A stretch of 8,601 bases of DNA from a virus (lineage: Duplodnaviria > Heunggongvirae > Uroviricota > Caudoviricetes), in IMG/VR virus record IMGVR_UViG_2700989489_000020, one strand, 5' to 3'. Position numbers and translations under genes: made by a program. Under the pieces are notes generated by a model that did not search any database, was not told where the DNA came from, and was given only the letters and a program-made list of their open reading frames with translations. Below are positions 1,686 to 4,631 of this stretch, piece after piece (position 1 is the stretch's first letter; every line of letters starts with the position of its first letter).

Positions 1686-1720
1686 TTGAAAATAAAAACA
1701 AAAACCCGCCGAAGCGGGTT
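1686..1720 (-). terminator. Rho-independent terminator after hok
   Basis: Minus strand reads AACCCGC-TTCG-GCGGGTT followed by TTTTGTTTTTATTTTC; 7-bp GC-rich stem plus U tract, about 70 nt after the hok stop. Confidence 0.6.
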
Positions 1721-1788
1721 AAGTGCGGGTGCGTTGAGGATGCCTGACACATCAGAGGTGGCGAGGGATTTCTCCCCCGCCTGGTCTC

Positions 1789-1944
1789 TTACTCCTCAGG
1801 TTCGTAAGCTGTGAAGACAGCGACCTCCGTCTGGCCGGTTCGGATTCGTACCTCGCAGAGGTCTTTCCTCGTTACCAGTGCCGTCACTATGACGGTTAAA
1901 CAGATGACGATCAGGGCGATTAACATCGCCTTTTGCTGCTTCAT
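1789..1944 (-). CDS. hokD: Hok/Gef family type I toxin (51 aa), HokD/RelF-like
   Basis: Translation from the internal Met of ORF 1789..2001: MKQQKAMLIALIVICLTVIVTALVTRKDLCEVRIRTGQTEVAVFTAYEPEE, matching my recollection of HokD. AAGGAG 9 nt upstream of that ATG. Single TM segment plus conserved Cys. Confidence 0.85.
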   Translation of the reverse strand: MKQQKAMLIALIVICLTVIVTALVTRKDLCEVRIRTGQTEVAVFTAYEPEE

Positions 1945-2136
1945 AGCCTGCTTCTCCTTGACCTTTCGGTCCGTAAGAGGCAATCTATATGTGACGAGCA
2001 TATAGGGGCCTCACTTCGATTTATAGTCGGGTGGGGCTTTTATCTATCTGCCGTTGGTGTTCATGCCCGAGGCAGATAGCCTCAAGCACCCGCAGCAATC
2101 CTACTTAACTCTGCCGTTACAGCAAACCGTTTTCGC

Positions 2137-2160
2137 CCGATATGGGAATTCCCATATCGG
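2137..2160. repeat. 24-bp perfect palindrome CCGATATGGGAATTCCCATATCGG
   Basis: Read directly; symmetry breaks at the flanking bases. Intergenic between the binding-protein gene and the hok leader. Confidence 0.9.
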
Positions 2161-2243: not shown

Positions 2244-2273
2244 CCGGAAAAAGAATCCACGTCCTGAAGGACG
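2244..2273 (-). terminator. Possible intrinsic terminator after the substrate-binding protein gene
   Basis: Short stem CGTCC-TTCA-GGACG directly after the TGA stop (2280-2282), followed on the minus strand by TGGATTCTTTTTCC. Stem is short, so weak. Confidence 0.35.
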
Positions 2274-2279
2274 AGGATG

Positions 2280-3038
2280 TCAAGTGCCTTTCCTGGTCCA
2301 GCCATATTTTTTGAATGCAGGCGCCGCTTCATCGGTTTGTAGCCATTCTGCAAATCGACGGGTTTCATCATTTGCATCCTGACGTACTGTAATGTTCATA
2401 TCACGCCATATCACGTAGTCTGGCGCTATTTCCACGACATCACCAATTTCTGGATTACTGGCTGCCCAGTCAGCCCAGGTTATCCAGACATCTGCTCCAG
2501 GCTGATTCTCAAGAGCCTTACGTGCAGTTCCGCTATTGGGCGCATATAAAATAATATTTTTTCGGATTGCGGCGACAGTTTCTATATTCCCTTTACGTCC
2601 GGCAATATCTTCCCAGACGCCAGTGCCTGATGTATTACTGGTACCACCACCATCATTAACAATTACGCCAATCCCAGGTCTGGTCAGGTCGTCAATACTC
2701 CGGATATTTTTAGGATTACCTTTCTTTACCAGTAAAATACTTTTTCGCAGATAAAGAGGCTGAATATCTTTTTCACTGAAGCTGTCTTTATGGTCCCGAA
2801 TGATAGCCAGAGCAGATTGTTCTGATGCGCCAAACAAGATATCTGCATTTTTTTTGGCATCTTCATTCCATTTGTTCTGTGGGCCGTAATGAACGTTCAC
2901 TATAATACCTGTTTTTTCGGCATAAAGTTTGGCTGCATCAAGCAAGGCTGTATGCGGGCCACCAGGACCATACAGATTGATATCAGCATAAGCAGCAGAA
3001 GACAGGAATATTAAAAAACCTGCCATTATGTTCCTCAT
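2280..3038 (-). CDS. Secreted periplasmic substrate-binding protein (ModA-like solute-binding fold), orphan cargo gene
   Basis: ORF track 252 aa. AAGGAG 7 nt upstream of the ATG at 3038. Sec-type signal peptide MRNIMAGFLIFLSSAAYA then DINLYG. C-terminal ...FKKYGWTRKGT resembles the ModA C-terminus from memory. Visibly AT-rich relative to neighbours. Confidence 0.75.
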   Translation of the reverse strand: MRNIMAGFLIFLSSAAYADINLYGPGGPHTALLDAAKLYAEKTGIIVNVHYGPQNKWNEDAKKNADILFGASEQSALAIIRDHKDSFSEKDIQPLYLRKSILLVKKGNPKNIRSIDDLTRPGIGVIVNDGGGTSNTSGTGVWEDIAGRKGNIETVAAIRKNIILYAPNSGTARKALENQPGADVWITWADWAASNPEIGDVVEIAPDYVIWRDMNITVRQDANDETRRFAEWLQTDEAAPAFKKYGWTRKGT

Positions 3039-3289: not shown

Positions 3290-3897
3290 TCAAGTCCATC
3301 TTCCACTGAGAATTAGAGGCGGCATGCTTTTTCCGGCTCTTGCCGGATATCCGTAATTGTCCATAATCTGCAGATTTATACCTTCTGCATGACCTGTCAG
3401 CGAAAATTTGTCCGGTGTTTCTACGGGAATGACATCAAAAGTTACACGCACTCGCGTTACCGTGTAGACCTACTTTCCTGCACTTGCAAGATCACAGTGG
3501 TGTAACCGTAACAGGAATTTATTCTCTGGACCGGCAGTAAATCCCTGAGTGGCGTGGTTCCCATATCAATTTCCCGCCAGGCAGCCTCCATTGCCAGCGT
3601 ACAGGCTGGAGCCATGACCTGCCCTTTAAATCTGGCCCGACCATCCCACCGGACGTGTTCTTCTCCCCTGAACTTAGGTACAGTCATCTCCAGTGGCACA
3701 AAAGTGTCAGCGCCATAATTTTTGACCGTTATCGCGCTACGGATATTTTGTTGACTGGTGAAAATCACCCCGCAGAATCAGGCTTATTCCCTTAACCTGG
3801 GCTTTCATCCTGACCGCCGCCTCACTACGACCAATCAGACTGCCGATGCATTTTACCTTCATTGTTAGTATCATGATTTCAGGCCTGCACCATCCGC
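3290..3897 (-). pseudogene. Decayed coding region: protein-like minus-strand reading frames broken across three frames
   Basis: Minus strand gives a 42-aa stretch (MKVKCIGSLIGRSEAAVRMKAQVKGISLILRGDFHQSTKYP), ORF 3457..3768, then an unstarted open frame ...VTRVRVTFDVIPVETPDKFSLTGHAEGINLQIMDNYGYPARAGKSMPPLILSGRWT ending at 3290. No single intact ORF, no good RBS. Family not recognised. Confidence 0.3.
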
Positions 3898-4631
3898 TCA
3901 TTGCCCGGACTTCCGACAAATCCCGGCAACCATATCCCGGTGCTTGTTCAGCTCCCGCAGCGCGGCGCAGACTCGCTCCCACTTCTGGACATGATTCTTC
4001 GCCCTACGCAGTTCGCGATTTGCCATATGCAGCGATGGCAAAATCAAATCATCTTCTCGCGTTGCAGTAAACGATGGCAGCGACTGCACAATGTCCGCCA
4101 CAGTTTCTGTTTTAATATCTTCCTGTGTTGCATCTTTCTGTACCGGTAACGAACACCGGCTGGCTGAGGAAAGGCTTTACCATCGGTTTCCGCTACCGAT
4201 TCAACTTTCGGCTCTGCTGGTAAATTATCACCTGGTATGCAGTAACGAATTTTACCGTTCTGGTTTACGCGAATCAGACGACCTTTGCTGATTGCCATTG
4301 CCAGCGTTGAAGCAACTTTGCGGGATGTTGTACCGAACAGCGTAGCCAGTTCATCCGCCGTTTGTGGTCCGCGTTGTTCAATCGTCGCGGTTAAATCGCA
4401 CTCTGAGATTTTCGCTTCTGTTGCCGTGGTGGTTTCTTCTGGCGCTGGCTGTTCCTGCTGAACGTTGTTATCAGCCACACGCCAGGTGTATACGCTTTTA
4501 TCAACGAAGCCAGCCTTTTTCAGTTCCCACAGCTCGTTCAGTACTTCTTCACGACTGATATCAAGTCGCGCAGCCAGCTCTACCGACGTGGCTTTTCCCA
4601 TCGCTTTCAGTGCGTCAAAAACAGTCTCCAT
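3898..4631 (-). CDS. Winged-helix prophage protein (DUF1627-like), apparently frameshifted near 4140-4180
   Basis: ORF 4044..4631 has GGGAGGAAA 5 nt upstream of the ATG and an HTH-like N-terminus, but its last ~40 aa are low-quality. A second frame (open from 4176, ORF 3898..4101) encodes plausible sequence [73 protein letters not shown]1627 name is from memory. Confidence 0.5.

Follow-up and report, generated by a model that had tools for sequence, protein, structure and literature searches.

Is the hok-type toxin gene carried by this tailed-phage DNA a remnant of the Escherichia coli K-12 hokD locus, left beside a cargo gene by some rearrangement, or is it part of a working toxin–antitoxin (TA) system? 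The gene lies in a stretch of 8,601 nucleotides (nt), hereafter the window, from IMG/VR virus record IMGVR_UViG_2700989489_000020 (Caudoviricetes). An earlier sequence-only reading had described it as a hokD-type toxin in a rearranged context, with a possible antisense RNA terminator on the plus strand. Our analysis makes it highly probable that positions 2126..1699 of the minus strand and 1958-2047 of the plus strand together form a complete type I TA module of the hok/mok/sok kind.

The toxin is indeed of the HokD type. The hok coding sequence (CDS), 1789..1944 on the minus strand, encodes 51 amino acids (aa), follows a Shine-Dalgarno (SD) sequence GGAG at 1957-1954, and is named hokD in RefSeq. 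Its product is identical to K-12 HokD at 51/51 positions, to HokW of phage 933W at 47/51 (92%), to HokC at 41/51, and to Hok of plasmid R1 at 23/51, and it scores 81.6 bits with Pfam family PF01848 (Hok/Gef), whose cut-off is 22. The Tyr47 codon (1803-1806, minus strand) is UAC followed by G, giving a UACG context; the motif is kept, and the same recoding could apply here. The window also carries the entire 147-nt hok leader, in keeping with the earlier suggestion that the toxin depends on a leader of its own. The full Rfam model RF01794 ("sok"; positions 1–157) aligns to 2091..1942 with 103.9 bits, the gathering score being 59. Since the alignment reads in the hok sense and stops within the hok AUG, what it supports is the hok leader; sok lies on the complement of that leader.

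Within the leader begins a 70-codon open reading frame (ORF), mok (1789..2001, minus strand), which appears in the ORF list, starts with the ATG at 2001, and is in frame with hok, with a common stop. The length is the same as that of the annotated mokW of 933W (70 aa), and mokC of K-12 has 69 aa. The window mok ORF is preceded by GAGG, and the architecture is that of the annotated mokW and mokC; the mok SD, GAGGC, lies at 2008..2012 (minus strand; mRNA nt 80–84), and its GAGG hardly varies across the alignment. Comparison with characterised hok/sok loci thus recovers mok and, as described below, also the Sok target and the fold-back elements.

How, then, does this locus relate to K-12 hokD? 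In a hok-sense alignment with the K-12 Qin prophage, homology runs from 16 nt upstream of the ATG through the CDS, the 3' untranslated region (UTR) and the terminator. There are just two base differences in this shared stretch, both in the 3' UTR, and the flank is shared to ~1640, the limit of the region compared. Upstream of window position ~1960 similarity collapses, and K-12 has the end of relE there. Missing from K-12 hokD are the promoter of hok, 131 nt of its leader, mok codons 1–19 and all of sok; the window leader is not truncated in the K-12 manner. Neither does the window have the K-12-type relBEF arrangement (relB-relE upstream, ~16-nt leader homology): relBE is absent beside its hok gene, as the sequence-only reading had noted, and the upstream neighbor on the same strand is the binding-protein cargo gene, paa, at 2280-3038. 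That reading's framing, a K-12-type hokD from which rearrangement removed relBE, leaving it next to a cargo gene, has in its favor the identity of the two Hok proteins and on the downstream flank held in common with Qin. Against this, the elements that K-12 lacks (131-nt leader, promoter, mok start and sok) are present here and are homologous to those of hokC, hokW and R1. Integration of relBE has moreover been reported to have cut an ancestral ~70-codon hokD ORF to 51 codons (PMC6379469, citing Ramisetty and Santhosh 2016), and both arrangements coexist in the genome of strain E2865. We consider this framing very improbable. On this comparison the polarity is the reverse: the K-12 relBE-hokD is the derived arrangement, co-transcribed with relBE in K-12 (hokD/relF; PMC3598666), and the window holds a full-length, ancestral-type hokD locus. 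The relE-hokD junction occurs in 1165 genomes and the paa-hok junction in 573. In the E2865 record (NZ_AP018808.1), paa-hok lies at 1751253-1751408 and relBE-hokD at about 2157762-2158012; the relBE-linked copy is without the Sok target and therefore should not be controlled by the Sok of the Sp9-type prophage to which, as described below, the paa-hok form belongs.

The second half of the module is the antisense RNA. The plus-strand hairpin first noticed in the sequence-only reading consists of GCCUCAC at 2008-2014 and GUGGGGC at 2031-2037, followed by UUUU at 2038-2041. Its stem reaches 11 base pairs (bp; 2008-2019 with 2027-2037, U2016 bulged), and a 57-nt plus-strand RNA folds with −21.4 kcal/mol (z = −4.2; 0/200 shuffles as good). 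The site agrees with those of K-12 sokC, 933W sokW and R1, in line with the Sok-like placement that had been proposed, and we take the hairpin at 2008-2041 to be the Sok terminator. Because the annotated sokC (K-12, where it is listed as a small RNA) and sokW (933W) each begin 8 nt inside mok, the same register predicts a Sok start at G1993 on the plus strand and an end in or just past the U-run, at ~2041-2047. The predicted Sok RNA (1993..2047, plus strand) is thus ~49–55 nt long and consists of a 5' tail, GACGAGCAU, of 9–11 nt that is single-stranded in the fold, the terminator hairpin at 2008-2037, and the U-run at 2038-2041.

The comparative set comprised 53 Hok-encoding loci from Escherichia, Shigella, Kluyvera, Citrobacter, Pantoea, Photorhabdus and others. 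The antisense strand of every homologue has a variable tail, a GCCUC...GGGGC hairpin and a U-run; after GGGGC, the run has at least 3 U in most homologues and is shorter in sokB and in the R1-type sequence. Over 18 aligned sequences the Sok hairpin is 98.1% paired, compared with 36–57% for slid partners, and 5/12 of its pairs show both-sided changes. Might this hairpin simply mirror a stem that the hok mRNA forms between ucb and the mok SD (described below), terminating no antisense transcript? The same bases do form that minus-strand helix, which also covaries; moreover, the U-run has just four U, for which reason a simple terminator scan of 1600-2300 did not flag the hairpin. However, one U·G pair is invariant (18/18 Sok sequences) and would be an A·C mismatch on the mRNA strand, which argues that the antisense-strand hairpin is itself under selection. 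Two more G·U pairs in the window would likewise become A·C mismatches, so that the hairpin is better on the Sok strand. Given also that GGGGC is followed by a U-run in every homologue, that Sok is annotated at the homologous site in K-12 sokC, and that sokW has been seen by Northern blot (PMC8621323), there is very little chance that the hairpin is a mirror image and nothing else.

The hairpin interior has one distant likeness. In two Photorhabdus temperata / kayaii loci (L043 and L044) it is almost as in the window at 2008-2037 (CCUCACUUCGAUUUAUAGUCGUGUGGGG); the flanks of these loci are typical of Photorhabdus, and neighboring paralogues have a different hairpin. The likeness could reflect exchange of, or convergence on, a Sok "specificity" cassette.

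Upstream of Sok, a putative sok promoter can be placed by positional homology at 1958..1986 on the plus strand, with a −35 TTGACC at 1958-1963, a 17-nt spacer, and a −10 CAATCT at 1981-1986. The equivalents are TTGACC-17-CACTCT in sokC, TTGCCT-17-TAACCT in sokW and TTGCGC-17-TATCCT in R1; the RNA made from the sokW promoter, which shares the geometry of the window sok, is the one detected by Northern blot.

On the opposite strand, the predicted full-length hok mRNA spans ~393 nt (1699..2091), RF01794 position 1 aligning to 2091 and the terminator occupying 1720-1703; the hok mRNA of R1 is 398 nt long. A putative −10, TAGGAT, is at 2098..2103 (minus strand), 6 nt before the +1 G. All of ~35 homologues have a −10-like hexamer at this distance from the GGGYGCUU 5' end: TAGGAT in the window and in K-12 hokB, TAGAAT in 933W, TATAAT in hokC, TATGAT in R1, and TATATT also among homologues. 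The putative −35 (TTTGCT / TTGCTG; 2120..2126, minus strand) lies 16–17 nt upstream of the −10, where AAAACGGTTTGC is common to the window, 933W hokW and locus L012. At the other end, the terminator scan finds an intrinsic terminator, AACCCGCUUCGGCGGGUU plus a U-run, at 1699..1720 (minus strand). Two Rfam matches were treated as chance. One is a full-length match to isrK (Salmonella small RNA IsrK) in the hok 3' UTR (1699-1780, minus strand), which scores 24.9 bits (E = 0.038) where the gathering score is 50, covers a GC-rich hairpin plus the terminator, and is probably driven by the latter; the other is a sub-threshold snoRNA match at 512-573.

Folding predictions give this mRNA more than one structure. 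The full-length RNA has a minimum free energy (MFE) of −165.3 kcal/mol (z = −7.4). In this fold the translational activator tac (GGGUGCUUGAGG; 2080..2091, minus strand; mRNA nt 1–12) forms 12 bp with the fold-back inhibition element fbi (CCUCAACGCACCC; 1727..1739, minus strand; nt 353–365), and blocking fbi costs 12.6 kcal/mol. The mok SD (nt 80–83) is at the same time buried by nt 55–61 of ucb, the anti-SD element (AAGCCCCAC; 2031..2039, minus strand; nt 53–61). Shortening the 3' end to 352 nt or less switches the MFE structure: tac nt 1–8 now pair with ucb nt 53–59, and the mok SD pairs with dcb (GCCUC; 1977..1981, minus strand; nt 111–115). The predicted Sok target hairpin (1985..2005, minus strand; nt 87–107) contains the mok AUG, in the 5' arm, and has a loop of 7 nt, CUCGUCA, whose CUCG fits the YUNR U-turn rule reportedly set out by Franch et al. 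in 1999. The first 30 nt alone form a metastable hairpin of −18.8 kcal/mol in which tac is sequestered. The window elements match those of the published folding pathway of R1 hok mRNA one for one (PMC9841398).

Covariation supports this structure. Scored on a MAFFT alignment of 37 full-length homologues with the window structure as reference, it is 87.1% paired, compared with 41–46% with slid partners, and 39 pairs show both-sided changes. The central tac/fbi column pair is U-A in 23 homologues and C-G in 12. More generally, the 5' GGGYGCUU covaries with a motif in the 3' UTR that is complementary to it and sits at a constant distance, 49–63 nt past the stop and mostly 52–56. The enteric variant is GGGUGC/GCACCC; GGGCGC/GCGCCC, hokB GGGUGCC/GGCACCC, and the Photorhabdus and Pantoea form GGGCGCUUG/CAAGCGCCC are also seen, and the 3' motif (fbi) has been lost to IS186 in K-12 hokC and hokE. 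Pairing reaches 99.2% in the tac/ucb helix and 96.8% in the SD/dcb helix, and both are almost invariant. The helix of the target hairpin is just 59.8% paired on this alignment, probably as a result of indels in a variable region; folded singly, all homologues give a target hairpin that is closed by SD/dcb and whose 5' arm contains the mok AUG.

By homology to plasmid R1, we infer the following steps of transcription, processing and toxin release. A weak constitutive promoter (TAGGAT) would give rise to the ~393-nt hok mRNA, whose 5' tac would be held in the metastable hairpin while the RNA is nascent. In the completed mRNA, tac/fbi pairing and burial of the mok SD by ucb would allow neither translation nor Sok binding. 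Slow 3' trimming would then remove fbi, leading to tac/ucb and mok SD/dcb pairing and to a target hairpin that presents the mok AUG and the YUNR loop. The unstable ~50–55-nt Sok (1993-2047) would bind this loop through its single-stranded 5' tail, blocking translation of mok and the coupled translation of hok, and RNase III would cut the duplex. Should the supply of Sok stop, by prophage loss or transcription shut-off, the stored hok mRNA would be translated and Hok would depolarize the inner membrane.

What such a module does for its prophage is a separate matter. R1 hok/sok mediates post-segregational killing (PSK). The window locus is likely to serve in prophage retention and/or to help lysis on induction, by analogy with what has been reported for hokW-sokW. 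That system is an experimentally validated TA; it requires RNase III and Hfq and promotes the release of Sp5 after mitomycin C (PMC8621323), and hok genes are overrepresented in prophages (bioRxiv 10.1101/2025.08.07.668861).

Several observations weigh against a complete and functional module. The hok −35 is weak, and a consensus promoter scan of 1600-2300 missed the hok promoter. The sok −10, CAATCT, is weak as well (just A2 and T6 match), which is why neither the sequence-only reading, which had reported no convincing promoter for the antisense RNA, nor the scan of 1600-2300 saw one. Apart from the hok and paa terminators, that promoter and terminator scan returned just an unrelated TTGAAG-18-TAGAAT at 1680-1651; both promoter calls are thus made purely from positional homology. 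Against the NCBIfam Hok subfamily models the protein scores below the curated cut-offs (48.5 vs 73), and the tac/ucb and SD/dcb helices, conserved as they are, are unproven by covariation. A literature search for Z2054/ECs1773, the O157:H7 names of this gene, found no expression data, and the native chromosomal hokA, hokB and hokC showed no PSK when tested (bioRxiv 10.1101/2025.08.07.668861). The weak promoter hexamers would fit a locus that is intact in sequence and yet silent, carried passively with Sok in excess or with hok mRNA that is never activated, and conferring no PSK, defense or lysis phenotype. Nevertheless, no regulatory element is missing, folding in silico reproduces the predicted switch, the locus is conserved nearly perfectly in 565 records and across serotypes, and hokW-sokW, a close relative, functions as a TA and has a phenotype in phage release (PMC8621323). 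On balance, we think a silent locus unlikely.

The genomic setting turns out to be a familiar one. Compared as a whole, the window shows 99.855% identity, over 8263 nt, to Sp9, the prophage that O157:H7 strain Sakai carries at ompW, and the two share the gene order cI-cro-ydaT-O-P-DUF1627-paa-hok-DUF968-rusA-Q. The module sits in the nin-like region of an Sp9/O-island 57 (OI-57)-type lambdoid prophage. Across the hok locus 480/481 nt are identical to Sakai Sp9, the one substitution corresponding to T17I in the Sakai Hok. In the Sakai annotation the 70-codon ORF is ECs_1773, "phage maintenance protein," adjoining ECs_1772, paa/adfO. In the literature on enterohemorrhagic E. coli (EHEC), adfO (z2053) and ckf (z2054, "putative phage-associated cell-killing factor") are OI-57 markers and are said to co-occur always (PMC8565820). 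Judged by these matches, the window hok is the marker ckf (z2054/ECs_1773) at the same locus as in Sakai Sp9. The paa-hok layout (positions 1600-2300 at no less than 80% coverage) is found in 573 of 5426 complete E. coli genomes; these positions are 100% identical in many Shiga toxin-producing E. coli (STEC) genomes (O26, O103, O111, O145 and others) and are also present in "PPompW" prophage records, and the hok locus is at least 99% identical across 565 records. From this distribution, the paa-hok context is the ordinary, well-known Sp9/OI-57 prophage layout and nothing unusual.

The paa product has an SBP_bac_11 / solute-binding fold (RefSeq name "AcfC family adhesin Paa"), and a terminator-like hairpin at the paa/hok boundary (2260..2273, minus strand) was found by the terminator scan, the paa stop being at 2280. 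In the regions ~3290-3770 and 4044-4631, the ORF fragments that lie between paa and the DUF1627 gene match a fimbrial-protein pseudogene with a frameshift and an internal stop, and in the E2865 prophage, which is identical, the annotation gives DUF1627 a frameshift. Next to paa, then, the cargo is in decay, while hok/sok is intact.

A more ambitious reading would make the Sp9/OI-57 module an active, allele-specific addiction or lysis-assist system that stabilizes, or times the release of, the prophage with its virulence cargo of paa/adfO and nleG effectors. We offer this tentatively, as a possibility with the odds against it. If true, its distinct Sok tail and hairpin would prevent cross-talk with the other hok loci of the same EHEC genome, and an active module could explain why ckf always accompanies adfO.

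The spacer between paa and hok holds a further element, a perfect 24-bp palindrome, CCGATATGGGAATTCCCATATCGG, at 2137-2160, 46 nt upstream of the hok +1 and located just where homology to the 933W and L012 hok modules stops (~2133). The paa-hok spacer with the palindrome is found in 580 genomes, and the context is this one in all the cases listed but one. In strain STEC299 the same ~42 nt occupy the equivalent prophage slot beside IbrA/IbrB-like cargo, not hok. This pattern suggests that the palindrome is a cargo-junction element or a binding site; more boldly, it may be a candidate protein-binding operator linking hok transcription to the state of the prophage. A 12-nt inverted match (92%) links the mok-start/Sok-5' region (GCATATAGGGGC, 1998-2009) to the same spacer (GCCCCTACATGC, 2218-2229), a complementarity judged likely to be chance.

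As far as homology can tell, neither the kind of system nor its location is new, and hundreds of genomes carry identical copies. The main value of the analysis is one of annotation correction, and it opens no new question. RefSeq (51-aa hokD), the Sakai annotation (70-aa "phage maintenance protein") and the STEC marker literature (ckf) mark neither mok nor Sok nor the mRNA switch; virulence-marker lists give ckf as a "putative cell-killing factor / virulence factor," without mok, sok or mRNA elements. If the locus is a complete type I TA, "ckf" would be a module whose toxin acts on the bacterium itself and not a virulence factor aimed at the host. The locus would also show the form of the ancestral, untruncated hokD and provide a natural full-length allele for experiments on prophage hok/sok.

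Several known systems are close to this locus. Closest in its toxin is K-12 hokD (relF, Qin), which like the window hok lies in a lambdoid prophage between the replication genes and Q and has a nearly identical 3' UTR with fbi and terminator; its tac, ucb and Sok target have also been replaced by relBE, and the window represents the untruncated form. The hokW-mokW-sokW locus (Stx2 phage 933W / Sakai Sp5) is also a lambdoid-prophage hok/mok/sok, near-identical to the window in the promoter region, the first ~65 nt of the leader and the CDS. Its central Sok hairpin/target region, in contrast, is a different allele, which belongs to the long class and is ~21 nt longer than that of the window, and the Sok 5' tails differ (GACGAGCAU in the window, GUUCAGCAU in sokW). 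The genomic slots differ as well: hokW is near attR in 933W, with no match at 10–24 kb, whereas the window hok is in the nin-like region beside paa. The hokC (gef)-mokC-sokC locus of K-12 has the same short leader class (~147 nt) and a similar Mok N-terminus (MLxTxRxPLTDRKVKEK), and sokC shares with the window the sok promoter geometry TTGACC-17-CAxTCT and a Sok hairpin with a bulged U; the stem interior and tail differ via compensatory changes, and the K-12 hokC copy has lost to IS186 the fbi that the window keeps. In R1 hok/sok (parB), as in the window, there are tac, fbi, ucb, dcb, a 70-codon mok and a Sok tail plus hairpin, and the metastable 5' hairpin and the switch between full-length and truncated folds are alike. 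R1 differs in its leader, ~22 nt longer, in its stronger sok −10 (TATCCT), and in being plasmid-borne with demonstrated PSK. The locus is mosaic in nature, with a 933W-like promoter, first ~65 nt and CDS and a hokC-like Mok N-terminus and length class, and the allelic variation among these aligned systems is concentrated in the Sok tail and hairpin.

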